A stretch of DNA of 32,000 bases, from NCBI GenBank assembly GCA_002707335.2, contig PAMN02000027.1:1-32000 (forward strand). The letters are read 5' to 3'. Below the pieces are notes generated by a model. It was not told the origin of the DNA. It searched no databases and saw only the letters and a program-made list of their open reading frames with translations. Of this stretch, positions 47-25,700 are shown piece by piece. The position numbers and the translations under genes were made by a program. Within the stretch, counting starts at the first letter, position 1. Every line of letters starts with the position of its first letter. Source of the DNA: Methanobacteriota archaeon. GTDB taxonomy: Archaea > Thermoplasmatota > Poseidoniia > Poseidoniales > Poseidoniaceae.

Positions 47-373
47 TTGAAGATGTCTGATGTTCTTCTGATTGACGGCCTGTGTGGTTTATGCACTCGT
101 AGTGGCGCATTCTTACATAAGAGATTGCGAAAGAACCTAGAAATTTCAGAATTAGAATCTGAAAAGGGCAAACAAATTCTTGAAAGCCACAAAATAAACG
201 TTGATTCAGTTGTTCTTGTGCGTGGTGACAAAACATACATCAGATCTGCAGCCGCTATTCGTTGTCTATTGTATATGAAATGGAATTGGAGATGGATTTA
301 CCCATTTGCTTGGATAATTCCCCTTCCAATCAGAGACCTAGGTTACATAGTAATTTCCAAACTCCGAAAATAG
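47..373 (+). CDS. DCC-family thiol-disulfide oxidoreductase (DUF393)
   Basis: 108-aa ORF. The N-terminal LIDGLCGLCTRS matches the D-G-x-C-x-L-C hallmark of DUF393/DCC proteins, and the size is typical of the family. Confidence 0.65.
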   Translation: MKMSDVLLIDGLCGLCTRSGAFLHKRLRKNLEISELESEKGKQILESHKINVDSVVLVRGDKTYIRSAAAIRCLLYMKWNWRWIYPFAWIIPLPIRDLGYIVISKLRK

Positions 374-474: not shown

Positions 475-488
475 TTAGGGACACCTAA
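475..488 (+). promoter_or_regulatory. Candidate operator site 1 (TTAGGGACACCTAA) immediately upstream of a TATA-like box
   Basis: 14-bp quasi-palindrome TTAGG-N4-CCTAA. One of five copies in the window, all intergenic and all in the same orientation relative to the downstream gene. Confidence 0.5.
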
Positions 489-490
489 AC

Positions 491-501
491 TTTATGTATA
501 T
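491..501 (+). promoter_or_regulatory. TATA-like box (TTTATGTATAT) for the 536.. operon
   Basis: AT-rich element about 40 nt upstream of the ATG at 536, bracketed by the two operator-like sites. Confidence 0.35.
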
Positions 502-508
502 CCGACTT

Positions 509-522
509 TTCGGGCGACCTAA
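509..522 (+). promoter_or_regulatory. Candidate operator site 2 (TTCGGGCGACCTAA), over the expected transcription start
   Basis: Has one mismatch to TTAGGG-N3-CCTAA. It starts exactly 34 bp after site 1 and ends 13 nt before the ATG at 536. Confidence 0.45.
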
Positions 523-535
523 ATCGAGATGATTA

Positions 536-1819
536 ATGATGAGTTTGAAAATAAAATCTATGCTAATGATGCTTTTATTGAGTTGCGCTGCTATGGCTGG
601 TTGCCTAGGCACTGACGACGAAGAAGAAAAGGATACAGAAGACCCTGCTGACGAAAAACCTGCTTGGTTAGACGCTTCAGATGCAGGCTATACCTATGCA
701 TCTGACGTTGACAACCACCGTTCTTTGATGAACGATCTGTGTGAAATCAAGGCTGCTGCAAGTTCTGACGGTGGATATGATTTTGCAGGAGCAAAGGCCA
801 TTTACACTGACGGTAAGAACGCTCCGAAAGACGATGGTTCCTACAGAACACTTGCAGGATTCGCTGCTGCAACTGGTAAGAACCACAATTATGATTCCTA
901 CTACGATATGAATGGATCCATTGGCGCACACATTATGGCTGCAATGGACGGTACTGGCGATTTCGATAACACCTCCGACACAGTAAGATACCAAGGTATC
1001 GCTAAACTAACAGTTAACATGGGAATGGTCGGATACACACTTCACGAACTAAACGCTGCAATCATTAAGGCAGAAGCCGGTGATTGGGGCACTGACAAGG
1101 CTCAACACGCATGGGACGAAGGATGGGCTTTCTTCCACGGACCTGATGAACACTATGGCTGTTCACCAGCTAAGGTAATGGAGAAGAGAGCAGCTGACTT
1201 CGGAACAGCAGACGCTGACGGAGTTGCAGCAACATTTGCAGCAACAGAGGCTGCTATGAATGCAGGATTGACTGCTCTACAAAATGAGAACATGCAAGGC
1301 GTAGTAGACGCTCGTGATGAAGTTCTAAAGAACCTAGTAATCGTTTACTCACAGGCTGTTCTAAAGTACACATCCAAGATGGACAGCAACACTACTGCTG
1401 AAAAGTACCAGGCTGAAGGATACGCCTTCTGGAAGGCTATCGAAGCATACGCTGCTCCACACATGCACGACGGTTGCTACAACATGGCAGTCGGACACAA
1501 GGTCATGATGATGGGAGAAATCGACGCATCTGCTTGTGACGCTTTCATCTGGACTAACGGTAACCAGGATCCTAATGGCACAAACGACACATGTTACAAC
1601 ACTGTAAACCACATGGTTTCCACTGATGCTACTGACGAAGCAGGCTGTGATGGATACAAATCCATGTACTACATGGACAATTATGCTGCTACAATGATGA
1701 ACAACGTACTAGATCTGACTGATGCTTCTCAACTAGGAACATCCTACGATGTTACAGCTTGGCTACAACCAGTTTGGGACCATTACGGAATCACCAGTTC
1801 AGATATCGGTTCAATGTGA
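536..1819 (+). CDS. Secreted acidic lipoprotein of unknown function, Met/His/Cys-rich (candidate metal-binding protein)
   Basis: 427-aa ORF with a signal peptide and lipobox (LLLSCAAMAGC followed by LGTDDEEEKD). Contains Met/His/Cys clusters (APHMHDGCYNMAVGHKVMMMGEIDASACD, SMYYMDNYAATMMNN) and a WDEGWAFFHG motif. It is the first gene behind the double operator. Confidence 0.8.
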   Translation: MMSLKIKSMLMMLLLSCAAMAGCLGTDDEEEKDTEDPADEKPAWLDASDAGYTYASDVDNHRSLMNDLCEIKAAASSDGGYDFAGAKAIYTDGKNAPKDDGSYRTLAGFAAATGKNHNYDSYYDMNGSIGAHIMAAMDGTGDFDNTSDTVRYQGIAKLTVNMGMVGYTLHELNAAIIKAEAGDWGTDKAQHAWDEGWAFFHGPDEHYGCSPAKVMEKRAADFGTADADGVAATFAATEAAMNAGLTALQNENMQGVVDARDEVLKNLVIVYSQAVLKYTSKMDSNTTAEKYQAEGYAFWKAIEAYAAPHMHDGCYNMAVGHKVMMMGEIDASACDAFIWTNGNQDPNGTNDTCYNTVNHMVSTDATDEAGCDGYKSMYYMDNYAATMMNNVLDLTDASQLGTSYDVTAWLQPVWDHYGITSSDIGSM

Positions 1820-1849: not shown

Positions 1850-1889
1850 GGGGTGGCTGGTTAAACGCCAACCACTAACCAGCCACCCC
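1850..1889 (+). other. GC-rich perfect hairpin: 14-bp stem GGGGTGGCTGGTTA / TAACCAGCCACCCC with a 12-nt loop
   Basis: Read directly from the sequence. It lies in the 86-nt spacer between the lipoprotein gene and the 777-aa gene. The GC content is conspicuous in an AT-rich genome. Confidence 0.6.
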
Positions 1890-1905: not shown

Positions 1906-4239
1906 ATGAGATTGATTTGCCCACTTATTTGTGCGCTTTTCATGTTCACGATTATCCCTTTAGAGATAGCAATGGCAGATTCTAATGATGAAGGCAATTT
2001 GTTTAGTTTATACGGCAATTTGTACGATGAGGAAGGTAACCCTGCTGCAGAAACCTCAATGAAACTTGTTCCGAGAGGATCGATATGGGCAGATGGGGGT
2101 ACTTACTCAATAGAAAATATATCTGAAGGTGAATACACTGTAAGAGCCTATTTCATGAACAATGGGCATACGGTAGTATACCGAACAATATACATTGATT
2201 CAGATACAGAACTTGACTGGCAAGTAGGTAAAAACTGGGCCACTGGAAAGTTATACGACAATGCCGAACAATTAATCGAAAACCCAGATTTGACCAATGT
2301 CAAGTTAATAGAGACAAATGAATCTGAGACTACAGATAACGGGAGATTCTCCTTGGGCCCATATGAAATTGGTAATTACTACACATTAAGAGCTTATTAT
2401 GGAGATATTGATCATTCTACACAGTTTGTCCACTTCAAAATGCAGTCAGGTTCTGCGACTGAATTTGACATCAATGATTTTGAATTCTATCATGGTAAAA
2501 ATAGTCGATATGGTTTCGTAAAAGATTCAGCAGGTAATTCAATGCCAGGAGTGACCGTAAGCAACGGAGATCAAACTGTTACTACTAACTCAGATGGATT
2601 TTACCTGCTACAAAACCTAGAGATAGGTATTGAAAACAATTTTACATTTATGCATGGAGAAAACGAGGTTGCTCCGCCAATAACGGAAATAATCACATCT
2701 GGAGAAGGATGGATGAACAACACCGGCACGATTGAAATTAATCTACCAGGTAATGCATCATTTACTACACAGGTCCAGGTTATTGAAAAGAATAAACCAT
2801 TTTTGATAGAATGGAATGGCGGTGCCTATACAGAATCATATTCACTTTACAGGAATGGTATAATTACATACTCAGGTACGAAGAGTGAGTACTCATTCAC
2901 ACCTCAACAAACTGGAAATTTTGAATTTACATTAGTAGCTGAAAATAATAATGGCACAACTGAGACTTTCAAGACCCTAGTTCTGATGGTGCTCCCTGAA
3001 CAATCAAGTTCAGATTTGTGGGCAGTAGGTATGTATTGGAATTATACTGTTGATTACTTTCCTTCCAGTGATAATCAAAATATTACGATGACTGCGATTG
3101 GTAAAGAAACTGTTACGGACGCATTTGGCTTCGAAAGAGATTCATTTGTGATTAGAATGTCAGGATCACATTATGAGGATGAAGAAAAATCCTACAGATG
3201 GGTAGATACTCAAAATCTACTGTATCTGCGCACATATTGGGTCGATGACCCAGACTCATCGTCATATTTCCAAGAAGGCACTCTAGGATGGGATTTCACT
3301 GATGCTAATGGAAACAAAACTGATTTATTTTCATTAGAAAATGGGTCAAATCTCCATTTTAATAGAACCAATATCATAGGTGTTCCTGGTCATCCCAATG
3401 GATACGATGACACACAAAATTCCATCCAAGTAACTGACAATGTGGTTATCACTACTGCTGCAGGAACATTTTCTACAACATATATTTGTATTATCGATAA
3501 TAATGACGGAGTAAAATCATGGGAATTATGGTATAATGACACTGTAAGAAACTGGGTAAAGAAAATCGATCGGCTCCCAGGTTCTCATTCGGATTCCGTT
3601 GAAATGGAACTGACTTCATTTGTCGTTCCAGTTACACCTCAATTTATTACTGAAGATTCTAATATATCTACAAAGAATCATCTTATCGAATGGGCTTCCT
3701 TCCAGGGTGCCTCTTCATATGAACTTCTTCACAATGGAGAAGTCGTATATTCGGGTTCTAACACGTCTTTCGAAATCAGAAATAGCGAAGACGGAAGGTT
3801 TGTCTATCAAATCAATGCAATAATATCTCAAAATTACAAAATTACAGGAGACATTTTGACTCTAGATGTATTTTACATTCTACTTCCGCCTGTCTTGGAA
3901 ACGAATGTAGATACAATTACTGAAGGAGAGAAATTGAAGTTATCATGGAATCCTGTGGAGGATTCAATTTGGTATTCAGTAATTGTACAAAATGACGATA
4001 ATTCACCTGTGGAAGTGTACAACGGCTCTAAAACAGAATTTACTACATCTGACCTAGATGTTGGATTAAATAGAATTAGGATTAGTGCTGGATCTTCTGA
4101 TGGAAAAGTTTCTGAATTATCCGATTCGATATTCATCAAGGTAGAACCTGAAGAGGATTCTGGTTTACCATCAATTGGTATTTTGGCATCTATATTCTGC
4201 GTTTTAGCAGCGGCTTTTGTTCTAAAAAGAAATGATTGA
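1906..4239 (+). CDS. Anchored surface protein with carboxypeptidase-regulatory-like and FN3-like repeats and a C-terminal sorting signal
   Basis: 777-aa ORF with an N-terminal signal peptide. Three CarboxypepD_reg-like units (e.g. YGFVKDSAGNSMPGVTVSNGDQTVTTNSDGFYLLQNLEIG). Three FN3-like units (IEWNGGAYTESYSLYRNG..YSG, IEWASFQGASSYELLHNGEVVYSG, LSWNPVEDSIWYSVIV). C-terminus: EPEEDSGLPSIGILASIFCVLAAAFVLKRND. Confidence 0.8.
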   Translation: MRLICPLICALFMFTIIPLEIAMADSNDEGNLFSLYGNLYDEEGNPAAETSMKLVPRGSIWADGGTYSIENISEGEYTVRAYFMNNGHTVVYRTIYIDSDTELDWQVGKNWATGKLYDNAEQLIENPDLTNVKLIETNESETTDNGRFSLGPYEIGNYYTLRAYYGDIDHSTQFVHFKMQSGSATEFDINDFEFYHGKNSRYGFVKDSAGNSMPGVTVSNGDQTVTTNSDGFYLLQNLEIGIENNFTFMHGENEVAPPITEIITSGEGWMNNTGTIEINLPGNASFTTQVQVIEKNKPFLIEWNGGAYTESYSLYRNGIITYSGTKSEYSFTPQQTGNFEFTLVAENNNGTTETFKTLVLMVLPEQSSSDLWAVGMYWNYTVDYFPSSDNQNITMTAIGKETVTDAFGFERDSFVIRMSGSHYEDEEKSYRWVDTQNLLYLRTYWVDDPDSSSYFQEGTLGWDFTDANGNKTDLFSLENGSNLHFNRTNIIGVPGHPNGYDDTQNSIQVTDNVVITTAAGTFSTTYICIIDNNDGVKSWELWYNDTVRNWVKKIDRLPGSHSDSVEMELTSFVVPVTPQFITEDSNISTKNHLIEWASFQGASSYELLHNGEVVYSGSNTSFEIRNSEDGRFVYQINAIISQNYKITGDILTLDVFYILLPPVLETNVDTITEGEKLKLSWNPVEDSIWYSVIVQNDDNSPVEVYNGSKTEFTTSDLDVGLNRIRISAGSSDGKVSELSDSIFIKVEPEEDSGLPSIGILASIFCVLAAAFVLKRND

Positions 4240-4261
4240 GAGCGGTTTTTGAGAAGGTGAA

Positions 4262-5350
4262 GTGATGCGATACAAGGTTGTCATTTCGATTTTTCAAGCG
4301 ATTATAGTAATTGTGTGTGCAATTGGAATCTACAATTATGCATTAAAACAAAACACTGACGAAACAGGAGAAATAATTATCACAGATTCAAATGGAGTCA
4401 AACACTACTTTGATGAGCCGCCCAGTAGGGTTGCAATAACCAACACTTATGCAGGGACGGTAATGCGCATGCTAGACATAAACGAATCACACATTGTTGG
4501 TGTTTCTGGTGACTTTAGTGATGAAAAATTGTGGCCAGAGCTTTCAAAAAAACCTATGATTCAGCAATCGGCTCACTCAGAAATAGATTTTGAAGCTATA
4601 CTCGATTCAAGAGCCGACATATACATTGTATTTGCAAACAATGGGATGGTAGATACAGGGGGCATTAGAGAAAAATTAGAGCCTGTTGGTGTGAAAGTTG
4701 TTGCTCTTGATTTTTACAAATATGATTCATTGAGATATGAAATAGACGTTTTAGCAACAATGTTTGGAAAGGAAAACCAAAGAGACATTCTATTCAATGA
4801 GTTTGATGAAATTGAGTCGTTAGTAGAATCAAAGTTGGTATCTTTGGAAGATTCAAATCGACCACAAATAGTGATGGAACATCATGCTTCTCTGACTAGA
4901 GATCCTGTGGTTCTAACTGGAACATCTCAGTGGACAGATTTGATACAAAGGGCAGGAGGGATAAATGTGTTCGAGGATTTACCTGGACATACCACTCATG
5001 TTGACATGGAAGCAATTTTGGACAAAAATCCTGACATCTTGATGTTTGACGGAATTACATTTGACATAGGATACAACAGATATGATGATACTGGTACGAC
5101 TTGTGAGACTCACATGCAGCATATTGAGAGTAGATCAGGTTTCGAAGAATTAAACGCAATAAAGAATGATAAGATGTTAGTTCTTTCTGGTGAATTCGCA
5201 GGACCAATGATGATTCACGGACTACCAACATTAGCGAAATATCTTCATCCTGATTTATTCGAAGATGTCGATTCAGAATCATATTTGGATGCCTATTTCA
5301 CAAAATATCACGATGTAGAACGAATTGGCAAATTTGTTTGTACTACATAG
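4262..5350 (+). CDS. ABC transporter substrate-binding protein, Peripla_BP_2 class (Fe-siderophore/haem/cobalamin type), N-terminally membrane anchored
   Basis: 362-aa ORF. GGTGA Shine-Dalgarno-like element just upstream, GTG at 4262 and ATG at 4265. N-terminal TM. RVAITNTYAGTVMRMLD...VGVSG...IDFEAILDSRADIYIV follows the FhuD/BtuF/FecB family pattern. It sits directly upstream of FecCD permease and ATPase genes. Confidence 0.8.
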   Translation: MMRYKVVISIFQAIIVIVCAIGIYNYALKQNTDETGEIIITDSNGVKHYFDEPPSRVAITNTYAGTVMRMLDINESHIVGVSGDFSDEKLWPELSKKPMIQQSAHSEIDFEAILDSRADIYIVFANNGMVDTGGIREKLEPVGVKVVALDFYKYDSLRYEIDVLATMFGKENQRDILFNEFDEIESLVESKLVSLEDSNRPQIVMEHHASLTRDPVVLTGTSQWTDLIQRAGGINVFEDLPGHTTHVDMEAILDKNPDILMFDGITFDIGYNRYDDTGTTCETHMQHIESRSGFEELNAIKNDKMLVLSGEFAGPMMIHGLPTLAKYLHPDLFEDVDSESYLDAYFTKYHDVERIGKFVCTT

Positions 5351-6517
5351 GTGGTTGATCAAATGGATTCAATCTCCCTGCAACACGTTGAGAAAGGAAA
5401 ATATCAACTTTTAATAATTTTAGGACTTGCAGTTTTTACTTTGTTATCGGCTGTTTTCGCATTGGGTCTGGGTTCATCATCTAATCTTGACATGGTTACT
5501 AGTTGGAAAATTGTAATTTCTGATACAAAGAAATTTTTTCTCAATATTGATACCGTAGCTGATAATTTGTGGTACAATTTGACCGCTTGTATATCATCAT
5601 CTTCTTGTGAAGACCGGTCTCTTTTGCATGGAATAGAACGTGAAGGCACGAATATCCAAAATGCGATAATTTGGGACTGGAGGTTTCCAAGGATTCTGAC
5701 TGCAATAGTAGGAGGCATTGCCCTGGCTGTAGCTGGAGCATTGATGCAAGGATGTTTGGGCAACCCATTAGTTTCACCGTTAACACTGGGAGTTGCTTCA
5801 GGTGCAGCTCTTGGCGCTGCGTTTGCAATCGTTCTTGGTTTCACAATATTGTCTATTCCTGAACTCGCAATTGTTGCTAATGCATTCTTTTTCTCTCTGG
5901 TTGTTGTTACTATTATCATTCAGTTAGGTAAAATCCGTTCAATTAGCGCTGAATCATATATTCTTGTTGGTATTGCGATTACATTCATTTGCGGAGCTAT
6001 TGTGTCAACAATGCAATATTTTGCTACAGATGCTCAGTTATCCCAACTCGCACATTGGTCATTTGGAAGCCTATCTAGGCCTAGCGGTGGAAATGTAATA
6101 TTGATGGGTCTAATTCTGGCATCATTACTTCCAACCGCACTTAAATGGTCTTGGGACCTTAACACACTCTCAATGGGAGGTGATGAATTTGCTATATCCA
6201 CAGGAGTAAATCCAAGTAAAATCCGTAAAAATATTCTCATTGTTTCGGCTCTTATGACATCTATTGTGATTGCTTTCACAGGTTTGATTGGTTTCGTTGG
6301 ATTAGCAGCACCCCACATGAGTAGACTTATTGTGGGTAATGATTTTAGAAAATTAATTCCATGTTCGGGATTATTCGGTGCTTTTTTGATGATTTTTGCG
6401 GATACATTGGGTAGAACTCTTTTTGCTCCAATTGTAATTCCTGTGGGTGTTATGCTTTCGATAATAGGGGGTCCTTTTTTCATGTATTTATTGCTCAGGC
6501 GAGGTGGTCATCATTAA
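5351..6517 (+). CDS. FecCD/BtuC-family iron-chelate ABC permease
   Basis: 388-aa ORF. PRILTAIVGGIALAVAGALMQGCLGNPLVSPLTLGVASGAALGAA is the classic FecCD signature, and the protein is multi-TM. The true start may be the ATG at 5363, which has GGTGG 8 nt upstream. Confidence 0.9.
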   Translation: MVDQMDSISLQHVEKGKYQLLIILGLAVFTLLSAVFALGLGSSSNLDMVTSWKIVISDTKKFFLNIDTVADNLWYNLTACISSSSCEDRSLLHGIEREGTNIQNAIIWDWRFPRILTAIVGGIALAVAGALMQGCLGNPLVSPLTLGVASGAALGAAFAIVLGFTILSIPELAIVANAFFFSLVVVTIIIQLGKIRSISAESYILVGIAITFICGAIVSTMQYFATDAQLSQLAHWSFGSLSRPSGGNVILMGLILASLLPTALKWSWDLNTLSMGGDEFAISTGVNPSKIRKNILIVSALMTSIVIAFTGLIGFVGLAAPHMSRLIVGNDFRKLIPCSGLFGAFLMIFADTLGRTLFAPIVIPVGVMLSIIGGPFFMYLLLRRGGHH

Positions 6518-7325
6518 CAAAATCTTGGATGTGACAAACCTCAACTTTTCATGGGGGAGTAATGAAGTTTTGAAAGACATTAGTTTCTCTATGAAATCCA
6601 ATGAGGTTGTTGCGATATTGGGTATTAATGGTGCTGGAAAATCTACCCTAATCAAATGCCTAAATAGAATACTATCGCCAAAATCTGGAGATATACATAT
6701 TCGCCCTCATTGGAGTAATTTAAAAGAAACTAATCTAATCAATATCTCATCACTCGATCTTGTCGAGATATCAAAAACGATGTCATATGTACCACAAAAT
6801 GTTGCAACAAGTTTCCCCATGGATGTATTCGACGTAGTACTTCTTGGTCGCAAGCCACACCTAAGTTGGAGAATCAGTGATGAAGATAGAGACAAAGTTA
6901 GCGAAACTTTGAGGTATCTAAATCTAGAAGACTTTGCTTTTCGAAAGTTTAATCAGATATCAGGAGGAGAAAGACAAAGAGTAATTATTGCTAAGGCAAT
7001 TGCCCAAGATCCTAATTTGTTTTTATTTGATGAGCCAACAAGTGATTTAGATCTTAAAAATCAAATACAGATTATGAAATGTATAAGAAAAATAATCAAA
7101 GATAAAAACAATTCAAAATCTGCCTTAATTGCCATACATGACATAAATATAGCAGCAAAGTATTCAGATAAGATTCTCCTATTGAATAATGGTTCTATTA
7201 TGGCATATGGCCCGCCGTCTCAGGTCCTTACCGAGGAAAATATTGCAGAGGTATTTGGTGTAAAATGTTCCATTTCCTCAGTAGATAAGCATTATATTCG
7301 CGTTGATGTAGACGATGAAATCTAA
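6504..7325 (+). CDS. ABC transporter ATP-binding protein (FepC/BtuD-like)
   Basis: Walker A GINGAGKST, signature ISGGERQRV, Walker B LFLFDEPTSDLD. Overlaps the permease gene by 14 nt. Confidence 0.9.
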   Translation: MVIINKILDVTNLNFSWGSNEVLKDISFSMKSNEVVAILGINGAGKSTLIKCLNRILSPKSGDIHIRPHWSNLKETNLINISSLDLVEISKTMSYVPQNVATSFPMDVFDVVLLGRKPHLSWRISDEDRDKVSETLRYLNLEDFAFRKFNQISGGERQRVIIAKAIAQDPNLFLFDEPTSDLDLKNQIQIMKCIRKIIKDKNNSKSALIAIHDINIAAKYSDKILLLNNGSIMAYGPPSQVLTEENIAEVFGVKCSISSVDKHYIRVDVDDEI

Positions 7326-7345
7326 AAATAAATTAAAGTGATAAT

Positions 7346-8167
7346 ATGACAAAGAAAACGAGTGACTTATCAAGACATGGCGTACCTAAAGGAAAGAGAA
7401 GAGTACAACAAGAACTTCTTTACGACCCTGATATTCCAACGCCAACTCATGCAGAATATTCTATGACAATAGCTCACAAAAAGAATACTGCAACATTATG
7501 TACAATTTCGATAAACGAGGGAAACCATCCATATGGTTCGTTTGTTACATATGCAATGTATGAAGGAAATCCTATTTTCTTGATTAGCAAGTTAGCGGAA
7601 CATACTAAGAATCTCCGAGCAAATTCTAAATCATCATTATTGATTGCTGAAGGAGGCGATGAAAACCCACTTGCTTTAGGCCGCATAACCCTGGTAGGAA
7701 ACTGTACAAAACTTTCCAAAGAGGATAACCCAGAAGTAAAATCAATATTCTTGGAAGAGCATCCAAGCGCACGTTTTTATGTTGATTTCGAAGATTTTGA
7801 CTTTTATTGCTTAAATGTTGAAACTATTAGATACATAGGCGGTTTCGGTAGAATGTCTTGGGTAGACTCTGACAATTGGTTTAAATCTGAACCTGATCCA
7901 TTGGAGCCATATTCAAAAGATATTATCGAACATATGAACGATGATCATCGTGATGCAATGGTAATTCTCTGTCAGAAGATGAGTAAAGCCACCGATACGA
8001 CAGATGCAGTGATGGTGGCAATAGATCGTTATGGATTTGAAATGTCTGCGGTAACTGAAGATGGAGAACGTCCGATTCGTTTGGCATTTGATAACCAAGC
8101 CAGCAATTCAGAAGAGGCAAGAGTTGAGATAATAACCTTGGTCAAAAGAGCAAGAGCCTCCGAATGA
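7346..8167 (+). CDS. HugZ/COG0748-like haem-iron utilisation protein (PNPOx-like split barrel + DUF2470)
   Basis: 273-aa ORF. Split-barrel pattern: ATLCTISINEGNHPYGSFVTYAMYEGNPIFLISKLAEHTKNLRANSKSSLLI...RITLVG. C-terminal DUF2470-like segment: IIEHMNDDHRDAMVILCQ. It lies immediately after the FecBCD-type transporter. Confidence 0.7.
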   Translation: MTKKTSDLSRHGVPKGKRRVQQELLYDPDIPTPTHAEYSMTIAHKKNTATLCTISINEGNHPYGSFVTYAMYEGNPIFLISKLAEHTKNLRANSKSSLLIAEGGDENPLALGRITLVGNCTKLSKEDNPEVKSIFLEEHPSARFYVDFEDFDFYCLNVETIRYIGGFGRMSWVDSDNWFKSEPDPLEPYSKDIIEHMNDDHRDAMVILCQKMSKATDTTDAVMVAIDRYGFEMSAVTEDGERPIRLAFDNQASNSEEARVEIITLVKRARASE

Positions 8168-8199
8168 TGCAATTGTAAGGTTTTGAATACACGGAACGA

Positions 8200-8922
8200 G
8201 TGGGATTGTTGGGGGGACTTAATTTGTCAAGCAGCGAATTGATTCTCTCAGTTGAAAATCTAACAGTCGGTTACAATGAAGAGTTGATTTCGAAGATCAA
8301 CTTAGAAATAAATACGGGAGATGTAATTGCTGTTGTCGGACCTTCTGGTATAGGAAAAACAACGCTACTGAGGACTATTGCGGGATTGGTGAAACCAATT
8401 TCAGGAGACATTTTTTGTAAGGCTCCTAAAAGGGGAGGAATCGGTTACATCCCTCAAAAGTTAGGCCTAGTACGCCATACTAGTGTCTATCATAATGTGG
8501 ATTTGGGTGCTAGATCAGGCTCAAGATTTTTTTCTGAGCCAAAAACCTGGTTCAAAAGAAGAAGTGAAAGAGTAACGACAGCAGTCGAAAGAATGGGACT
8601 TTCAGATAAAATGAATGAGCCAGTAAGGCGTTTATCTGGTGGCCAGCAAAGAAGAGTTGCGACAGCGAGAACACTGGCTCAAAGACCAAAATTAATTCTT
8701 GCTGATGAGTTTTTAAGCGAACTGGATGAAGATAATATTTCAATTGTTCTAGATGCTGTAAAAGAATATATGGCTGCTAGCGAATCTGCAATGATTATTG
8801 TTGAACATAACATTCAGAGAGCAACCGAAATTTCTACTCGTCTACTTCAGATTAAAAATGGCGAATTAGTAGAGTACAATCCTTCAGAAATGAAATTTGA
8901 TCTAGATGGTGGTTTAATATGA
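8200..8922 (+). CDS. phnC: PhnC-like ABC transporter ATP-binding protein
   Basis: Walker A GPSGIGKTT, signature LSGGQQRRVATARTL. Atypical Walker B, ILADEFLSELD, with F where P is usual. The PhnC-like insertion between the Q-loop and the signature is present. The GTG start is uncertain. Confidence 0.75.
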   Translation: MGLLGGLNLSSSELILSVENLTVGYNEELISKINLEINTGDVIAVVGPSGIGKTTLLRTIAGLVKPISGDIFCKAPKRGGIGYIPQKLGLVRHTSVYHNVDLGARSGSRFFSEPKTWFKRRSERVTTAVERMGLSDKMNEPVRRLSGGQQRRVATARTLAQRPKLILADEFLSELDEDNISIVLDAVKEYMAASESAMIIVEHNIQRATEISTRLLQIKNGELVEYNPSEMKFDLDGGLI

Positions 8923-8931
8923 GGTGTTACA

Positions 8932-9837
8932 ATGAATAGAGCACTCAAAAAAATCATCTTCACAACGGTTACTCTTTCTGTGCTGTGCTATATCTTTCTT
9001 AATGATTTATTGCAAGGCGATTGGAGTGTTCTCTCTGCAAGTTGGGATAACCTAGAAACATTTTGGAATGAGTCTCTTTGGCCTCCAGAATGGAGTATGT
9101 TAGAAGCCAGGAAATACCCAGAGTGTGGATCAAGCATTGGGTTTTTCTGTTCCAAAGCCTACATTGGAATGCTTGAAACACTAAAAATGGCATTTGTTGC
9201 AACAATAATTGGGTTTACCATAGCAATATTTCTGTCTCCGTTTGCAGCAAAAAACCTCACATCTGCTTGGGTTTACATCCCAATGAGAATAATTCTAGCA
9301 GCAACTAGAAGTCTTCCAAGCATTATATGGGCTATAATCTTCGTAGTAATTGTAGGCCTAGGTCCTTTAGCTGGAGTACTAGCAATGACATTTTACACAG
9401 TAGGGTATCTAGGTAAATTGCAGTATGAAGAAATGGAAGGTGTTCAAAATAGCCCTCTCGAGGCTGCGAGGGCAATGGGGTTATCTCATCCAGAAATCGT
9501 AGCTAACGTTGTCATACCAGAATCAAGCAATAATTTACTTAGTCAACTGCTATTTATGTTTGAATACAATGTTAGACACGGTTCAATCCTTGGTTTAGTT
9601 GGAGCGGGAGGCATAGGATTTTATTTGCAATTCTACTTGAACTTCTTGATGTATAAACACGTTATGGCTTTCATCGTTGTTATTCTGGTGGTTGTAATAA
9701 TCATAGATTTGATGTCGATGTACATACGCTCATTCGTTACAGAAGATGGTGATGTAAAACGACCATCTTGGTCAACAATATTCTTATCTCCAAATCAAGC
9801 AAAGAAATACCATCATGGTAAATCGGAAGAAGAATGA
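8932..9837 (+). CDS. phnE: PhnE-like ABC transporter permease
   Basis: 301-aa multi-TM ORF. EAARAMGLSHPEIVANVVIPES...RHGSILGLVGAGGIGFYL matches the PhnE signature, including GAGGIG. GAGGTG Shine-Dalgarno-like element upstream. Confidence 0.8.
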   Translation: MNRALKKIIFTTVTLSVLCYIFLNDLLQGDWSVLSASWDNLETFWNESLWPPEWSMLEARKYPECGSSIGFFCSKAYIGMLETLKMAFVATIIGFTIAIFLSPFAAKNLTSAWVYIPMRIILAATRSLPSIIWAIIFVVIVGLGPLAGVLAMTFYTVGYLGKLQYEEMEGVQNSPLEAARAMGLSHPEIVANVVIPESSNNLLSQLLFMFEYNVRHGSILGLVGAGGIGFYLQFYLNFLMYKHVMAFIVVILVVVIIIDLMSMYIRSFVTEDGDVKRPSWSTIFLSPNQAKKYHHGKSEEE

Positions 9838-11049: not shown

Positions 11050-12129
11050 TCAATCGTATTTATCATTAAAGTAAGCGGTGATTCCAGGTACGTCCTCAAT
11101 CAGACTACCGTAGTTACCGAGGTGATCTTGCGTGTTAATGATAGTAATTCCAGGAGTACTCATTACATCCTGTAAAATTTCTACGTCATCTGAGTTAGAA
11201 CTCATATCAGAGAATGCATTCTGTATTGTTACAACCATTTCATCTGACATATAATCCGGATTGTACATAATTGGATGGCTTGGAGCCTTTCCAAATGTTG
11301 GCAGTGCGTAATAGTCGTTTACGTCCTTAAATTCACCTTCAAAGCACCAATCTTCATTGTCATCAGGGTCTTCATTGCCACAGTAATCTGGAACTGTAGG
11401 GTCCTTAGCGAAGGAAATGAAGTCTTTTCCACCCTCTGCTAAACAGCGAAGGGAACCTATGTACTTGTGATATTTTGTACCGCTATCTGGTATACTAGAA
11501 TCTTCATTGAAATGATTATACACAGTATCTGTCAAGGAACTGATATCATCTGGATCTCCGACAACTTCGATATAACCTCTGTCAATCATCCATCCCATCG
11601 GAAGTAGCATTCCTGAACTTCCTAATGCAGATGTGTGGCACGATGTTTTACCTTCCATCAAAGCGAATGGATCTGTTGAATTATCATCATCTTGGTCGGC
11701 CAATGCCATGTCTGAATCTTTGTGAACCCATGCGATCGCATTGTAGAATGGTCTTCCATCTTGCTTTTGTTCAGCACCTAAAACCTGTAAGTCGTGTGTT
11801 TGCCAACTGAGCCAAGCAGCACCGCCGTCAAGGAACCCAATATCGGCATGTCCAAATCTCAATGCTTCAATAGTTGCACCAGGACTTGATACGGGGTAAA
11901 TTTCAACGTCCATTCCGATAATTTCTGAAAGCCTATCTGCTAGCTCCTGTGGATTTTCTTCGGTATTCTGGTATTCTTCTTTTGTCTCGAATGCGATTGT
12001 TAAACAGTTGTCTGGGTCATCACATTTCTTGAATGTAACCATACTATCGTCTGTAAATAAACAGCCGGGCATTGCAGCAGATATAAAGAAAATCGTCACT
12101 AAAAACGGGAGGGTCAATTTGGCATTCAT
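11050..12129 (-). CDS. Lipoprotein substrate-binding protein of the PhnD/transferrin superfamily with a transferrin-like Fe-ligand set
   Basis: 359-aa ORF with signal and lipobox (FFISAAMPGC). Motifs ADIGFLDGG, PFYNAIAWVHKDS, GKTSCHTSALGSSGMLLPMG, KYIGSLRCLAEGGKDFISFAK and APSHPIM align by eye to the human serotransferrin N-lobe around Asp63, Tyr95, Thr120, Tyr188 and His249. A pipeline would probably label it a phosphate/phosphite/phosphonate ABC substrate-binding protein. Confidence 0.8.
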   Translation of the reverse strand: MNAKLTLPFLVTIFFISAAMPGCLFTDDSMVTFKKCDDPDNCLTIAFETKEEYQNTEENPQELADRLSEIIGMDVEIYPVSSPGATIEALRFGHADIGFLDGGAAWLSWQTHDLQVLGAEQKQDGRPFYNAIAWVHKDSDMALADQDDDNSTDPFALMEGKTSCHTSALGSSGMLLPMGWMIDRGYIEVVGDPDDISSLTDTVYNHFNEDSSIPDSGTKYHKYIGSLRCLAEGGKDFISFAKDPTVPDYCGNEDPDDNEDWCFEGEFKDVNDYYALPTFGKAPSHPIMYNPDYMSDEMVVTIQNAFSDMSSNSDDVEILQDVMSTPGITIINTQDHLGNYGSLIEDVPGITAYFNDKYD

Positions 12130-12139
12130 GGTATCACAA

Positions 12140-12153
12140 TTAGGCTGCCCTAA
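12140..12153 (-). promoter_or_regulatory. Candidate operator site (reads TTAGGGCAGCCTAA on the minus strand), 10 nt upstream of the ATG at 12129
   Basis: Same 14-bp motif as at 475/509, oriented with the downstream (minus-strand) gene. Confidence 0.5.
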
Positions 12154-12162
12154 AATAATCTG

Positions 12163-12173
12163 CTTAATATATT
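12163..12173 (-). promoter_or_regulatory. TATA-like box (AATATATTAAG on the minus strand) for the 12129.. operon
   Basis: AT-rich element bracketed by two operator-like sites, about 35-45 nt upstream of the ATG. Confidence 0.35.
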
Positions 12174-12187
12174 TTAGGCCGCCCTAA
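12174..12187 (-). promoter_or_regulatory. Candidate operator site (reads TTAGGGCGGCCTAA on the minus strand) abutting the TATA-like box
   Basis: Starts exactly 34 bp from the 12140 site, the same spacing as the 475/509 pair. Confidence 0.5.
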
Positions 12188-12231
12188 ATCAAACTGTAAT
12201 TCACTATTGAGTAAAGTATAAGTGGCGTTGT

Positions 12232-12245
12232 TTAGGGCAACCTAA
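12232..12245 (+). promoter_or_regulatory. Candidate operator site (TTAGGGCAACCTAA) upstream of the 892-aa gene
   Basis: Fifth copy of the motif, in plus orientation. It lies between an AAAGTATAA TATA-like element (about 12213-12221) and the start region at 12257/12272. Confidence 0.4.
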
Positions 12246-12256
12246 AAGTACAATCT

Positions 12257-14935
12257 TTGGAGGACTTCATTTTGGATGCAAACAAGTTATCGGTATTCAT
12301 CAGGAAATACCCTTTAGTCATAATCTTGGTTTTGTTAATCCTACCTTCATCGATAACAGTGCCCCATGTATTAATGACTCCAGATAATCCAAGTGGAGAA
12401 ATACCATTTCCTGAAAACATAAGCGTTGATTCAGAAGGTTTTGTTTTAATCGTTTTAGATGGGATTGGTGAAGATTATTTTCTCAACGAAGAATTGATGC
12501 CAGAGATAAATAAATACAGGGAATATTCTGCTACAGTCAAGATTAGAACTGGTCCACTTACCCTTTCAGCCACATGTATTAGCGAAATGATGACAGGAGT
12601 GCCAAACGCCCCCATCAATGGATTACGAAATTTCAATCTAGGCCACCCTGGGATGAATGACCCTTATCTGTTAGCAGCAAATGATCCAAGATACAATGTT
12701 GCTATGGTTGGAAGTTACGTGATGGGGAATATGTATCGAGATTTTTCAAATATTGATTTTGTAAATACTTTCAAAGGACATTCTGACTATTATGAAGGGG
12801 ATAAGGATACATTAGAAGTAGCCGCAGATTGGCTGAATAATTCGGATTACAACGTGATGGCTGTACATTTCTCAGGGCCAGATAAAGTCGGACACACATG
12901 GGGTGCAAACAGCCCGGAGTACAGAACTAAAATAACTGCTGTTGACCTACAAGTTGCAGAACTACTGGATTTAATTCCATCTCAATGGTCTGTAATCATA
13001 ACTGCTGACCACGGAATGACAGATATGGGAACTCATGGTTCCTCAGAAGAGATAACACGAGATGTTGCAGCAATTATTTCCGGCCCAAATATTGTTTCTA
13101 AATCTGAAAGTTCTGGGCACCAGAGAGACCTTTCTGCTATTGTTCCAGTAATATTGGGGTTACCATTTCCAATTCAACTCCATGGCAGAATACCATTGGA
13201 TATTCTGGATTATTCTGATAGTGAGAAGTCTGTGATTGAAAGCTGGAATTGGGACGCAGCATATCAAAGACAACTGTTTTTTGATAAGGAAAATGGAGTT
13301 GACAACCCTGACCTATCACAGGATGAGATAGATTGGGAATTAATCCCATCAGATGGAGATTTTTCGCGTGATAGTGACATTTTAATTTCGATATTTACCT
13401 GGATAATGATCGGTGTTTTTTTGATACTAGCATTGGGATTAAATCGAAATGAAATAAAATCAAATTGGAAAATATTTGCATCCTTCATAGCCATAATTTC
13501 ATTATTCATCCTGAGTCATGCCATGTTGAAATACTCAGCCATGATTCCGAGAGCAATTGGCGGCCTATGTGCTGTATGGCTAGTAGGCTGGTCGATGTCA
13601 AAAACAAATAGAAATGATCTCGAAACTAAAGGGGAAATATCTGATAGAATAGGTCAAATTTTGCACAAACCCTTGATTTGGTTTGGTTTGTCTTGTGTTA
13701 TCGGAATTATATTTTGGTCTCCTCTAATAGCAGTTGTAAGCACACTATTTGCGTATTCGATACTGTATTCATTGTATTGCGCATTTAACAAAAATGAGAA
13801 GCAATCTGACTATCCCACTTTTTGGCCTTGGATCATGGCTCTGTTGTGCATGACCTTTGGTAGCATTAGATTGTGGTACAGTTTAATTCCTTTCATGTTT
13901 ATTTTATCTGGGATGTTAATTGGATTCATAAAAACCAAAAAAACCAGCATTGAAAAAATGCCCATCGTGTGTATGCTGATGTTGACTTCATATGCTGTAT
14001 TTTTCGTTCATAAGAGGATATATGGAGTCAATTACATACTGGAAGCTGTTGAATCGGGTTGGCCAAATTCTATCGAGAATATTTTAATATCTTCAGTATT
14101 GCTTATTCTTAGTGCTATAATTTCTGTCACTGCACATTTTGGAGAGATTAAATCCGAGAAAACCGTCAAATTCTCAATATGGTTATTATTCGGATTACTT
14201 GTTTCATCTATTGAATCCTCATATTTAGATCTCGTATCAATAGCGCTTATTTTCTTCGCATTCGGCGCTGCTGTTTTCATACGAATTAAAGAACCTGAAT
14301 CAAAATTAGTCATTGAATACACGGTTGCAGCATTAGCGATGCAATTACTACTCACTTGGGGGGCATGGTCTACATTTGCAACACTGTTAATTTTAACATG
14401 CTCCGGAAAAATATGGGGCTTAATTAGTGATGAATTTAGACAATCAACTCATAATTACAATGCTAAACCATTTATCGCTGCTGCAGTTTTCCCTTGGGTC
14501 ATATGGGTTTTATGGTGGACTCTTTTAGGACAAGTAAACGGGTTACAAACATGCTTTGAAGGTATTTGTCCCCATCCAAGGGAATTAGATCCTGGTTCGA
14601 TTCTAGTAAGAGGAGGCTATGTTGGATTCAGAGAGGGGCCAAACCTATATTGGATGATATTTATGATTTCAAGTCCAATAATATTGACCTCGTTCATGTT
14701 AATGAAAAATTTACATAAAAACGGATTGGATATGTATCCTTACATATTATTCCAGGCTTTGGTAGTACTAGGTTGTATCAGTGTAATCGGATTTTCTCCA
14801 GAATATCCAAGGCTTGTATTTAGTCTAACTTGGAATATATTTTTCGCAATATTCCAAATTGTCTTAGCAACATCGGTGATTATTATGAATCGTTATTTTC
14901 CTGCAGGTTTAGAAAAACAGAACTATGTTTCGTAA
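12257..14935 (+). CDS. Membrane-embedded alkaline-phosphatase-superfamily enzyme, PigN/PigO-like (phosphoethanolamine-transferase / type I phosphodiesterase architecture)
   Basis: 892-aa ORF with an N-terminal TM. The catalytic domain has VLIVLDGIGEDYF, a GPLTLSATCISEMMTGV nucleophile region, HFSGPDKVGHTWG and ITADHGMTDMGTHG. About 500 aa of multi-pass TM follow. TTG start at 12257; an alternative TTG at 12272 sits behind GGAGG. Confidence 0.7.
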   Translation: MEDFILDANKLSVFIRKYPLVIILVLLILPSSITVPHVLMTPDNPSGEIPFPENISVDSEGFVLIVLDGIGEDYFLNEELMPEINKYREYSATVKIRTGPLTLSATCISEMMTGVPNAPINGLRNFNLGHPGMNDPYLLAANDPRYNVAMVGSYVMGNMYRDFSNIDFVNTFKGHSDYYEGDKDTLEVAADWLNNSDYNVMAVHFSGPDKVGHTWGANSPEYRTKITAVDLQVAELLDLIPSQWSVIITADHGMTDMGTHGSSEEITRDVAAIISGPNIVSKSESSGHQRDLSAIVPVILGLPFPIQLHGRIPLDILDYSDSEKSVIESWNWDAAYQRQLFFDKENGVDNPDLSQDEIDWELIPSDGDFSRDSDILISIFTWIMIGVFLILALGLNRNEIKSNWKIFASFIAIISLFILSHAMLKYSAMIPRAIGGLCAVWLVGWSMSKTNRNDLETKGEISDRIGQILHKPLIWFGLSCVIGIIFWSPLIAVVSTLFAYSILYSLYCAFNKNEKQSDYPTFWPWIMALLCMTFGSIRLWYSLIPFMFILSGMLIGFIKTKKTSIEKMPIVCMLMLTSYAVFFVHKRIYGVNYILEAVESGWPNSIENILISSVLLILSAIISVTAHFGEIKSEKTVKFSIWLLFGLLVSSIESSYLDLVSIALIFFAFGAAVFIRIKEPESKLVIEYTVAALAMQLLLTWGAWSTFATLLILTCSGKIWGLISDEFRQSTHNYNAKPFIAAAVFPWVIWVLWWTLLGQVNGLQTCFEGICPHPRELDPGSILVRGGYVGFREGPNLYWMIFMISSPIILTSFMLMKNLHKNGLDMYPYILFQALVVLGCISVIGFSPEYPRLVFSLTWNIFFAIFQIVLATSVIIMNRYFPAGLEKQNYVS

Positions 14936-22717: not shown

Positions 22718-25700
22718 CTATTGCTGCCCTTGGAAGTGAGCGGCATATTGTTGGGCATAGGCCCGTGCCGTTTCTTCAGGGTAACCTTGAGCAATCAACT
22801 GCTGTACGTATTGTTCCATTGGATCCATTTGTGCAACTGCTCCGTAAGCATCAGCTCCTCCAGCCCAGCCAGTATCGCCTTGCATCATTTCATCTTCATC
22901 TCCACCTTTGAGAACAAAGAATAGTGTTAGTACAACAATCAATAGAAGCGCTCCACCGCCACCGAGATACAGAATCAAGTTATCGTCTCCGCCTGATTCT
23001 GCAGAATTATCAACTGGTGCTTTGTCTGGAATTCCATCACCATCAGAGTCTGTATATTCTCCTGACCATTCACATTCTTTTGTATCTGCATTCCAAATCC
23101 AATAAGCGTCTTGTTCTGCAACTAGTACTTCGTTACTCGGCAAATCTCCTTGACAAGCATCAAGTCTAATTTCTATCCAATAAACAATCGGCCATCTCTT
23201 GTCTTCTCCTTCGTATATCTTCAAGTAAATTTCCTTGTCATAAGTAGTATTGTTATACAAATCTGTAAGTGTTAGAGTTAGTTCGAATGAATCTCCATTT
23301 CCTAGAGGTAGACTCTTACGCCATTCACCAGACTTATTCAGGGTAAACTTCGATACAGCGGATGCATCAAATGAATCTCTATCTAGTGCTGCTTCGACAT
23401 AAACATCGCCTTGCTCAGCACCATCAAGGATATTACCTGATAATGTGATTGTGTCGTTAGAGTAGGTTGAACCATTCAAGTTCACGTCGATTTGAACGGT
23501 AGGCTCTTCGTCTCCAAATCCTTCAGGCACTACAGAGAAATACATTTTGTATCTCTCTGATAATTTATCTGCTTTGTCAATTACAACCAATTCAATTCGT
23601 ATTAGAGACTCGGTTTGACCACTAGGGTCGACTGTCACGTTACTGAATGTATAAGCCCATTTGCCATCGCTTGAACTAGGCATAATGAAACTGTGTGCTG
23701 GTGGAATAGATGTATCATCGTATTCTTTGTCAAAGAGTACTGTCCACTCATATGTTTCTATTCCATTTCCAGTAACTGCATCAGGATCGTTAGATTCACT
23801 AGCGTCAAAGTAAACCGTAAGTGAGCCTGTTTCATCCAAGTGAATTCGGTTTTGAGGCCAATCTACACCAGATGCTGTCTTTACTCCTTGACTTTCAATT
23901 CTCTCTGCATAGGAATCTCTCATCTCTATTTCCACGCTAGCAGTTGGAGGATCTGCGTCTGCCTTTGTATCGTCTGTCATTACTGTAGCAGATAGTACTC
24001 TGGAATGCCCCTCGTTGTCGTGTAGATACAATTTTACATTCCATGTAGCACCTTGCTGACAGTTAGTTGCGGATGAAAGATCTACCTTACAGAATGTAGT
24101 TGTTGGACTCATCAAATCTGTGTGAGATGTGCCACTAGCCATTGATGCTCCATTCCAATCAGTAGGTCCATCTAGAACCCAATCAGTTTCTAACGCAGAA
24201 GTAGATGTACTTGTGTATCCAAATGTTATCTCCGCGTTGCTCTTCATGTAGGTGTATGCATATCCACCAGTTGAAGGGTCAATAGAAGGTGTGTCCCCAT
24301 TAATGGTCAATTGTGTTCCATTTTGTGTAAATCCGTCAGGATATGGGGATACGTGATAGCCCAACATGTTACCTAATAGTGGGAATGTGGTGCTGTTGGC
24401 TCTTTCAGAAACACTTGCTACATCTATAGTTGTAACAATCATTCCGCCATCCAGGTAACTACAGACTCCAAGAACTGTGTCTTGTTGATCTACTTCTGAT
24501 TGAAGGATTCGTTGGAAGGAACCTCCTGATTCAGAGTAGCCACCACATGCACGAGGAACAGATGTTGCAGAAGCGCTCTTTGTGTTAATTATAGCTTCAG
24601 TTACAGTTCCAAATTGGTCAAACCCTTGGAATGCTGCCACATCGACTCCGTCCAAAATTGGATGGTATGGGTCAGCAACTTCCATGTTACTGTATGTTAT
24701 TCTATTGTTGGCATCTGCCTTAGGCTTGATGTCCATATCAAACGGCAACAAACTTTCACCGGTTGAAGAGGAATACTCGTAGTAATCAGTATCTCCTGAA
24801 AGGTGAACTTGAACAGTTCCACCAGAAGACATGAAATTCTTGAGTACCAATTGGTTAGAAGACTTGCCAATTACTTCATAGTAACCACGTCCACCTTCGT
24901 CTACTGGTTTAGCAGTGTTTGGATCTTGCCAAGGCATGATGACCTTATCGTAGTGAGAGATCCATCCAAGATCTAGGTATTCGTCCCAATCGTTGATGTC
25001 ATATTGAGTGTATGTCATTCCTAGGATTTGGATATCTTCCTTAATTGCAGAAACTCTTGTAGAATCTCCCGACAGTATTGCTACATCGATTTGGTCTGCA
25101 AATGCTGCGTGGAAGTATCGAACATTTCCAGATGTCTTTCCATCAGGTAATGTTGCATGGAAACTGATGTTGTACATGTGACCATCAGTCCATCCGTTCC
25201 ATGGGGTGAAAGACAGTCCTGTCTTTTCATTTGGAGCCAGAGTTTTACTTGGACCAGCGGTGGTAGTATGGACTTCAGTCCCGTCTGCCATGTCTACAAC
25301 TGTCATGTGGAATACATAATCACCTTGTAGAACTCCATTTGTTGCTGACAGTTCCCAGTCATGAGTTAGGGAAGAGTCAATTGGCAACATACAATCCATC
25401 ACTACATCTGATAAACAAGATATTTGATCAGGTTTTCCTAGAGTGATATCTACACTTTCCACCGAGAAGATTACTTGAGCAAGATTGTTTGCAACTGAGA
25501 CTTCTTCTGCTCCAAACCAGCTTGTTCCTGCTGTTGTGTTATCGAAAATTGATTCGATTTCAATCTTGTAAACTCCAGAATAGAATTCATGGTTTGCTAC
25601 TGGAATTGTTCTGTTTTCTTCAGCATCTAGGTCTTGAACTGTAGTAGTGTAAACCGCATCTTGGCTGAATGTGAACTCCTGTAAGGAAATATTGTCGAAT

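Follow-up and report, generated by a model that had tools for sequence, protein, structure and literature searches.

The operators closest to those described here belong to two metalloregulators of the DtxR family, the actinobacterial IdeR and TroR of Haloferax volcanii. The 19-bp iron box contains four CCTAA repeats; in IdeR-DNA structures every monomer contacts a single repeat, a given dimer spanning repeats 1 and 3 (TTAGG-N4-CCTAA). A lone IdeR dimer also occupies a 'half binding site', and a redefined 14-bp consensus, TTAGGNNNNCCTAA, has been proposed (PMC8464063). For TroR, chromatin immunoprecipitation sequencing (ChIP-seq) yielded the motif TTTAGGC-NNN-CCTAAA, found in a siderophore promoter as tandem copies with a spacing of about 30 bp, either of which is enough for iron-dependent repression; repression under iron sufficiency is documented by ChIP-seq, RNA sequencing (RNA-seq) and reporter assays (PMC10783522). 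Here we describe a pair of palindromes of this kind at positions 474-523 of contig PAMN02000027.1, in the 32,000-nucleotide (32-kb) stretch of DNA that was analysed as a whole and is called the window below, where they flank the TATA-like box in the putative promoter of a string of eight genes with iron- and haem-type uptake functions.

We consider it probable that these palindromes are the operators of a dimeric DtxR-family metalloregulator of the Poseidoniales, acting by the scheme of iron-dependent repression proposed below. The Poseidoniales, or Marine Group II, are uncultured and rank with the most abundant archaeal groups in surface waters of the ocean. The mechanism itself is already known from the single-dimer arrangement of TroR and IdeR; what appears to be new is its occurrence in Marine Group II, and among the papers listed by a literature search there was none linking the Poseidoniales or Marine Group II with DtxR, FEA1, ISIP2a, FTR1 or phytotransferrin.

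Paired palindromes at two promoters

The first promoter of the window has the following elements.

475-488: 14-mer core of O1, TTAGGGACACCTAA, read from the sequence
474-489: distal operator O1, TTTAGGGACACCTAAA, a perfect 6-4-6 palindrome, read from the sequence and matched exactly by the pattern
491-498, plus strand: putative TATA-like box TTTATGTA of the promoter of the FEA1-like operon, assigned from ortholog conservation
509-522: 14-mer core of O2, TTCGGGCGACCTAA, read from the sequence
508-523: proximal operator O2, TTTCGGGCGACCTAAA, whose left half reads TTTCGG, a single A-to-C mismatch

The original prediction, made from the sequence alone, had placed paired sites at 475-488 and 509-522 on either side of a TATA-like box, the second of them ending 13 nt before the ATG at 536, and on re-reading both the coordinates and the gap (523-535) proved exact. 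Each core gains one base per side to give a 16-mer of the form TTTAGG-N4-CCTAAA, and this 16-bp palindrome is the actual unit. O2 lies 34 bp downstream of O1, with TTTATGTATAT at 491-501 between the two; the right half of O1 overlaps the position of the transcription factor B recognition element (BRE), directly 5' of the TATA-like box, and the transcription start is predicted at about 521, some 30 nt past the start of the box and inside the right half of O2. The TTCGG variant of the proximal site recurs in close relatives (loci L001, L002, L005, L006, L011 and L061). A degenerate stretch, TTTCGGGTTGGAAATC, at 441-456 was rejected as a further site, since its second half bears no relation to CCTAA.

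Beyond this pair the window holds three more sites, making five in all, every one of them intergenic and confined to two promoter regions (474-523 and 12139-12246). The second region is the divergent intergenic region between a minus-strand gene for a transferrin-like binding protein (11050..12129) and the gene at 12257..14935.

12139-12154: operator O3, ATTAGGCTGCCCTAAA, proximal site of the minus-strand promoter, an exact 14-mer
12163-12172, minus strand: TATA-like box, ATATATTAAG as read on that strand, between O4 and O3
12173-12188: operator O4, TTTAGGCCGCCCTAAA, distal site of the minus-strand promoter, an exact 14-mer
12231-12246: operator O5, TTTAGGGCAACCTAAA, an exact 14-mer, preceding the gene for an 892-aa protein of the alkaline-phosphatase superfamily

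Read on the minus strand, the order O4, ATATATTAAG, O3, 9 nt and ATG, with a spacing of 34 bp, repeats the plan of the promoter at 474-523, the 9 nt being those between O3 and the start codon of the binding-protein gene. O5 lies 10 nt downstream of AAAGTATAAG (12213-12222). The single-dimer operator definition for DtxR, IdeR and TroR (TTAGG-N4-CCTAA, pentamer centres 9 bp apart) is matched exactly by O1, O3, O4 and O5 and with one mismatch by O2. The spacers of the five sites are GACA, GCGA, CTGC, CCGC and GCAA, none of them TTAG-like, and the classical 19-bp iron box TTAGGTTAGSCTAACCTAA, with its four CCTAA repeats offset by 5 bp, has no match in the window even at three mismatches. The original prediction had taken the separation of 4 nt for a departure from the iron box; this has to be corrected, as the 19-bp box is two 14-mers offset by 5 bp and 4 nt is the canonical distance. 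Its identification of the half-sites TTAGG and CCTAA with the DtxR/IdeR pentamers is borne out by the literature and by the co-location with DtxR-family genes described below. Because the motif equals the IdeR/DtxR single-dimer site and nearly equals that of TroR, the sites of the window are canonical single-dimer operators of the DtxR family, to which binding is predicted.

We have asked whether the palindromes might not be regulator sites at all, the choices being chance, a lineage-specific variant of the core promoter (BRE) or leader RNA hairpins. Within the window, TTAGGNNNNCCTAA with up to one mismatch has 5 matches where 0.72 are expected, a number reached by none of 100 shuffles, and the 16-mer pattern has 8 strand-hits against 0.45 expected. 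The wider sample consisted of 80 orthologous Poseidoniales loci and the window, 1.29 Mb in all and 93% coding by a crude call of open reading frames (ORFs). In it the exact 14-mer occurs 167 times, 155 of the copies falling in the 7% of sequence that is non-coding, while 29 control palindromes, permutations of the same pentamer, have 0-9 copies each and no more than one non-coding copy apiece; spacer lengths from 0 to 11 other than 4 return 0-2 matches each, and only the 4-nt spacer is enriched. These counts of the 14-mer against control palindromes and spacers rule out chance and base composition, and in this sample the motif is far from the background frequency, genes included, that the original prediction had named as the result that would count against it. 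It is true that the right half CCTAAA stands at the expected place of the BRE and that a palindrome could fold in RNA. Against both of these stand an excess of about 20-fold or more over composition-matched controls that is specific to the 4-nt spacer, the small number of gene families, chiefly for metal uptake, that the motif accompanies (it is missing from 392 of 564 promoter-type gaps, even in loci selected around it), half-sites that are invariant and not merely complementary, and the place of O1 upstream of the TATA box, where it would not be transcribed. A search for RNA families at the operator region gave no credible match; the only hit, Hammerhead_II, is inside a coding region and was taken as chance (E = 0.47, far below the gathering score). 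That the palindromes are anything other than regulator sites is thus extremely improbable.

Conservation across the Poseidoniales and the candidate regulator

The 80 orthologous loci, obtained from a scan of reference genomes, come nearly all from Candidatus Poseidoniales (Marine Group II), including metagenome-assembled genomes (MAGs) of Poseidonia and Thalassarchaeum, and for this reason the window is archaeal, as the original prediction had assumed. The orthologs of the first gene are 47-93% identical at the protein level, and its homologs come from marine 'Euryarchaeota' MAGs. Three contigs carrying the FEA1-like gene with operators are filed under MAGs of Verrucomicrobiales, Rhodobacteraceae and Dehalococcoidia (L017, L066 and L075, respectively); these are probably mis-binned archaeal contigs.

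A motif lies no more than 250 nt from the start codon in 74 of the 80 orthologous promoters, 56 of which have at least two copies, and the site at the position of O1 is likewise present in 74 of 80; the possibility that related promoters would lack the motif, the second result said to count against the prediction, is therefore set aside. The half-sites are invariant and the 4-nt spacer varies freely. Alignment of 63 distal sites shows T, T, A and T at positions 3-6 nt past CCTAAA in 63-71% of cases, followed by A/T-rich sequence, and a TTAT(A/T)-rich stretch begins 2-3 nt after the distal site, a feature that the proximal sites do not have. This stretch presumably represents the TATA-like box, which would place the CCTAAA half at the BRE position. 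The start-to-start spacing of site pairs is most commonly 32-34 bp (28 pairs), then 43-45 bp (25), 54-59 bp (7) and 19-21 bp (5), and 0-15 nt separate the end of the proximal site from the start codon. The same order of site and then TATA is seen at 21 binding-protein genes with a site within 300 nt upstream. The layout that had been pointed out in the window, with one site abutting the BRE and TATA region and the other over the expected start, is thus kept throughout the order.

Neither the window nor any of the 80 orthologous loci encodes a DtxR-family regulator near the FEA1 operon: phmmer searches for DtxR and MntR homologs over all of their ORFs, with a DtxR query validated against the PDB, gave no match at E <= 1. 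We therefore turn to metagenome contigs, scanned with the pattern TTAGGN4CCTAA, 5-31 nt, TTAGGN4CCTAA, which returned at least 120 loci (743 kb, GC 0.27 to 0.77). Among the 120 loci listed, the paired sites are intergenic in 117, and 28 DtxR-family genes are found, of which 23 have the sites no more than 150 nt upstream of their own start. The 125 flanking genes in these loci match the Pfam families Fe_dep_repress (22), Fe_dep_repr_C (21), FeoA (16), Phosphonate-bd/Transferrin (9), FTR1 (7) and Nramp (7), and Peripla_BP_2, Fea1 and TonB-type barrels (4 each). The motif alone, in other words, selects DtxR-family regulators and metal-uptake genes in nature. Two checks recommended with the original prediction can be answered in part. 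Enrichment of the motif upstream of metal-uptake genes is found in the window and the 80 loci, a sample short of the whole source genome, and the search for metalloregulator genes elsewhere, fruitless near the operon, leads to a DtxR-family regulator in other Poseidoniales lineages.

That regulator is a 219-aa protein encoded in two low-GC loci of the metagenome scan (L161 and L183), beside a Marine Group II-like gene.

L183:2245-2901: candidate Poseidoniales regulator gene, DtxR family

It has 240 relatives, with 78-97% identity among the 120 listed of the 240, and some of these carry the NCBI name 'metal-dependent transcriptional regulator [Candidatus Poseidoniales archaeon]'. The L183 protein matches the N-terminal winged-helix family PF01325 (52.5 bits against a cut-off of 26) and the metal-binding and dimerisation family PF02742 (59.4 against 27), and its C-terminal SH3-like domain matches PF04023, FeoA (33.4 bits against 23, residues 150-217). 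In all 18 contexts, which represent three lineages, the gene stands head-to-head with an iron-uptake gene, the partner being FTR1, a transferrin-like binding-protein/ABC operon or a surface-protein/Peripla_BP_2/FecCD operon. Exact operators in these loci of about 10 kb occur only in the gap of about 110 bp between the divergent genes, and the site nearest the regulator gene abuts the regulator's own TATA-like box, which implies a predicted autoregulation. In the same loci (L201-L218) a DsrE-family gene adjoins the regulator gene or overlaps it (by 0-4 nt), an arrangement that suggests a single transcript, and a thioredoxin gene lies from a few hundred nt to 3.2 kb downstream. One lineage also has a flavodoxin gene nearby, and no operator was seen before it. 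Flavodoxin is a classic iron-sparing protein.

With the regulator in hand, we can ask whether a factor of another family (MarR, ArsR, Lrp or Fur type, for example) might bind the palindrome, its likeness to DtxR sites being convergent. Binding is so far predicted, the window has no regulator gene, and half-site centres one helical turn apart would suit many winged-helix dimers. The half-sites and spacing are, however, identical to those of the IdeR single-dimer site and the TroR ChIP-seq motif; a DtxR-family gene stands directly behind the motif in 23 of the 120 loci listed, which were chosen by the motif alone; operators lie in the gene's own promoter region in 18 of 18 Poseidoniales DtxR-family gene contexts; and no other regulator family is enriched among the flanking genes of the loci listed. 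Such matches to MarR, HTH_24 and LexA as occur are probably secondary matches of the DtxR winged helix-turn-helix, as in the L183 protein. We regard a regulator of another family as very unlikely.

The main rival to an iron-sensing DtxR-family regulator is one of the same family that senses manganese (or zinc), in the manner of MntR or TroR, and several observations weigh against iron or against the link to the window. Of the ancillary residues, Glu83 is conserved and His79 and His98 appear not to be: position 79 aligns to Phe, though this part of the alignment is uncertain and a His stands two residues before it, and at position 98 there is Ser or Ala. In the recognition helix Glu replaces Gln43, as in most other operator-adjacent regulators. 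The best NCBIfam model is a manganese regulator, the Thermococcales-type MntR, and some members of the family bear the Joint Genome Institute (JGI) label 'DtxR family Mn-dependent transcriptional regulator'. In metagenomes the same paired operator also serves short DtxR-like regulators, some apparently beside Nramp genes, so that the DNA motif alone does not identify the metal. The regulator-bearing contigs, moreover, come from Poseidoniales lineages other than that of the window, and the homolog search described above found no regulator beside the operon. Genes shared between those contigs and the window are 44-65% identical, too little for them to serve as a bridge to the window's lineage, and they were rejected as such; it is from the order-wide conservation of both operator and regulator that the latter may be presumed present in the window's genome.

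Other observations speak for iron. Met/Cys as against Asp/Glu at two positions of the primary site set the selectivity of DtxR and MntR for iron and manganese, respectively. In the alignment with DtxR the primary-site residues Met10, Cys102, Glu105 and His106 are all conserved, with Met and Cys as in DtxR and IdeR where the manganese-sensing MntR has Asp and Glu. The score against the MntR model is far below the cut-off (93 against 350 bits), so that the name does not transfer, and among solved structures a 'putative iron dependent repressor' (8pvt, E = 7e-17) comes closest, ahead of MntR, DtxR and IdeR. The regulon consists of FEA1-like, FTR1, FecBCD-type, transferrin-like and HugZ-like genes, and no Nramp or manganese ABC gene was seen beside the Poseidoniales sites. 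A manganese or zinc sensor is accordingly unlikely in our view, and the sensed metal, to judge by the ligands and by the genes that make up the regulon, is presumably iron.

The short DtxR-like regulators just mentioned are 137-140 aa long, have the helix motif AAPSALEML and a Glu at the position of Met10, and stand behind the same paired operator in the metagenome loci L090, L093, L107, L118, L145, L162, L181 and L198. Some of the 7 Nramp genes flanking paired operators in the loci listed apparently adjoin them, and the paired operator is therefore shared by regulators, probably of manganese type, in other organisms.

Genes behind the operators

The genes that follow the two operator regions of the window, with one further candidate site, are these.

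536..1819, plus strand: FEA1-related lipoprotein, the first gene under the proposed regulation (Pfam Fea1, E = 2.5e-16; NCBIfam NF038033, 285.6 bits against a cut-off of 250)
1906..9837, plus strand: the remaining seven genes of the string, separated by 0-32 nt apart from an 86-nt gap behind the FEA1-related gene
8209-8222: possible decayed sixth site, TTGGGGGGACTTAA, with two mismatches, held with low confidence
11050..12129, minus strand: binding protein matching the Pfam families Phosphonate-bd and Transferrin
12257..14935, plus strand: 892-aa alkaline-phosphatase-superfamily protein with Phosphodiest/Metalloenzyme domains and an N-terminal membrane anchor

FEA1 is a low-iron-inducible protein family of algae. 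The relative encoded here has a lipoprotein-type N-terminus, in which …AGC at residues 21-23 is invariant, and is conserved across the Poseidoniales. The seven genes after it encode a 777-aa surface protein, a Peripla_BP_2 protein, a FecCD permease, an ATP-binding cassette (ABC) ATPase, a HugZ-like protein with CREG/PNPOx and DUF2470 domains that is a candidate haem oxygenase, a PhnC-like ATPase and a permease. Pfam and NCBIfam domain matches thus uphold the earlier description of an eight-gene plus-strand string for iron- and haem-type uptake, and the eight genes are presumably co-transcribed from the promoter at 474-523. The 86-nt gap after the FEA1-like gene contains a perfect 14-bp GC-rich inverted repeat, GGGGTGGCTGGTTA-N12-TAACCAGCCACCCC (window 1850-1889). 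In 60 of 65 orthologs the 110 nt past the stop codon of this gene fold far better than shuffled sequences (z < -2), with hairpin stems of 13-17 bp that differ in sequence among lineages. The hairpin is probably an intercistronic partial terminator or messenger RNA stabiliser, which would set FEA1 in excess over the transporter.

The TTGGGGGGACTTAA sequence lies directly 5' of an in-frame TTG at 8224 in the PhnC-like gene, and a full operator is present at the equivalent position in 18 orthologous loci; the site seems to have decayed in the window's lineage, and the listed GTG start of the gene at 8200 is probably too early. The minus-strand gene at 11050..12129 probably encodes the Fe(III)-binding partner for the PhnC/PhnE-like ABC genes at 8200-9837. 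The plus-strand operon and the minus-strand operon of 11050-12129 overlap tail-to-tail by 25 nt (9813-9837).

The alkaline-phosphatase-superfamily gene also appears to belong to the regulon. O5 lies over its predicted start site, and the L014 ortholog also has a site, placed in the same way, which suggests that the 892-aa protein may be an iron-regulated phosphoesterase. The listed start of this gene, a TTG at 12257, overlaps a GGAGG sequence, and the in-frame TTG at 12272 is the likelier start. Across the orthologous loci, the genes found behind sites are FEA1-like (74), transferrin/phosphonate-type binding protein (21), PhnC-like ATPase (18) and ZIP-domain (1), the others being mostly divergent neighbours of those families. 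Ferrochelatase was rejected as a member of the regulon, being a divergent neighbour of the FEA1-like gene with sites in only 1 of the 3 upstream regions shown.

Two other elements of the window may be recorded. Downstream of a DCC1-like gene (47..373) and upstream of the operator region, positions 400-443 contain a T-rich run (about 400-418), then a small hairpin, ACGCT-N6-AGCGT (425-440), and then TTT, which probably mark the end of the DCC1-like transcript. A 2170-aa protein with FG-GAP repeats is encoded at 22718-29230 on the minus strand; it is a giant surface protein, of a kind common in Marine Group II, and is unrelated to the operators.

Proposed mechanism and comparison with known systems

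We propose that one dimer would occupy each site of 14-16 bp, as described for Haloferax TroR and for IdeR on its 'half binding site'. With sufficient Fe2+ the metal-loaded regulator would sit on both O1 and O2; at O1, with the CCTAAA half over the BRE and abutting the TATA box, it would block transcription factor B (TFB) and TATA-binding protein (TBP), and at O2, over the predicted transcription start, it would block RNA polymerase. When iron is scarce the apo-protein would leave, and the operon of FEA1-like, FecBCD-type and HugZ-like genes would be transcribed. The same regulator would act on the convergent operon of the transferrin-like binding protein through O3 and O4 and on the alkaline-phosphatase-superfamily gene through O5, and in other Poseidoniales it would also control FTR1 and its own gene. 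That the regulator binds these sites is a prediction from sequence, and that it would repress rather than activate is suggested by the placement of the sites, which flank the TATA box and cover the start region, and by the Haloferax precedent. The original prediction had recognised in the promoter the layout of a repressor; its placement and the connection with DtxR are supported, and metal-dependent repression is what we infer from them.

The broader proposal, on which we find the balance to be even, is that the Poseidoniales possess an order-wide, autoregulated, iron-sensing regulon of DtxR type, in which the FEA1/ISIP2a-type homolog is the most consistently controlled member, together with the transferrin-like protein and FTR1. 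If so, phytoplankton-like acquisition of Fe(III) in these archaea would be controlled by a simple switch recognisable from sequence, and the operator would define a set of marker genes for diagnosing archaeal iron limitation. Marine Group II would thereby gain a sequence-readable circuit made up of a single conserved operator, a single conserved regulator and a small iron-uptake regulon. The members of the latter (the FEA1-like protein, the transferrin-like protein with its ABC transporter, the FecBCD-type transporter, the HugZ-like protein and FTR1) could serve as markers of iron limitation of marine archaea in ocean metatranscriptomes, and the archaeal DtxR/TroR paradigm would be extended from the haloarchaea to the Thermoplasmatota.

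The nearest relative of this system is that of Haloferax volcanii TroR (PMC10783522). The motifs, TTTAGGC-NNN-CCTAAA there and TTTAGG(G)-NNN-CCTAAA in the window, are alike, as is the use of tandem copies in iron-uptake promoters, about 30 bp apart in Haloferax and 34 bp apart in the window. The differences are that the setting is an open-ocean member of the Thermoplasmatota instead of a haloarchaeon, that the sites flank the TATA box and reach to 0-15 nt from the start codon, and that the targets are FEA1-like, FTR1 and transferrin-like genes rather than siderophore genes. Furthermore, constitutive expression is reported for troR, while operators lie in the promoter region of the Poseidoniales regulator gene itself, and a FeoA/SH3-like C-terminal domain such as that of the Poseidoniales protein is reported in Haloferax for SirR (PMC10783522).

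With actinobacterial IdeR and DtxR (PMC8464063) the system shares the pentamers and the one-dimer geometry TTAGG-N4-CCTAA, and the regulator has the same Met/Cys/Glu/His primary metal site and three-domain layout. It differs in having separate single-dimer units in place of the 19-bp two-dimer box, placed 32-45 bp apart around an archaeal TATA box and not at bacterial -10 and -35 elements; in the protein, Glu replaces Gln43, the ancillary histidines appear not to be conserved, and the overall sequence similarity is distant (E of about 1e-9 to 1e-11). MntR of Bacillus subtilis is a dimeric winged-helix protein of the same fold family and among the better structure matches (E of about 1e-11), but its Asp8 and Glu99 correspond to Met and Cys in the Poseidoniales protein, and it is without the C-terminal FeoA-like domain and controls manganese uptake genes. 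Among archaea, finally, MDR1 of Archaeoglobus fulgidus is said, in work of Bell et al. from 1999, to be an autoregulated DtxR-family repressor with multiple operators around the start that blocks recruitment of RNA polymerase; its operators reportedly lie downstream of the TATA box, while in the promoter described here one site also overlaps the BRE position.

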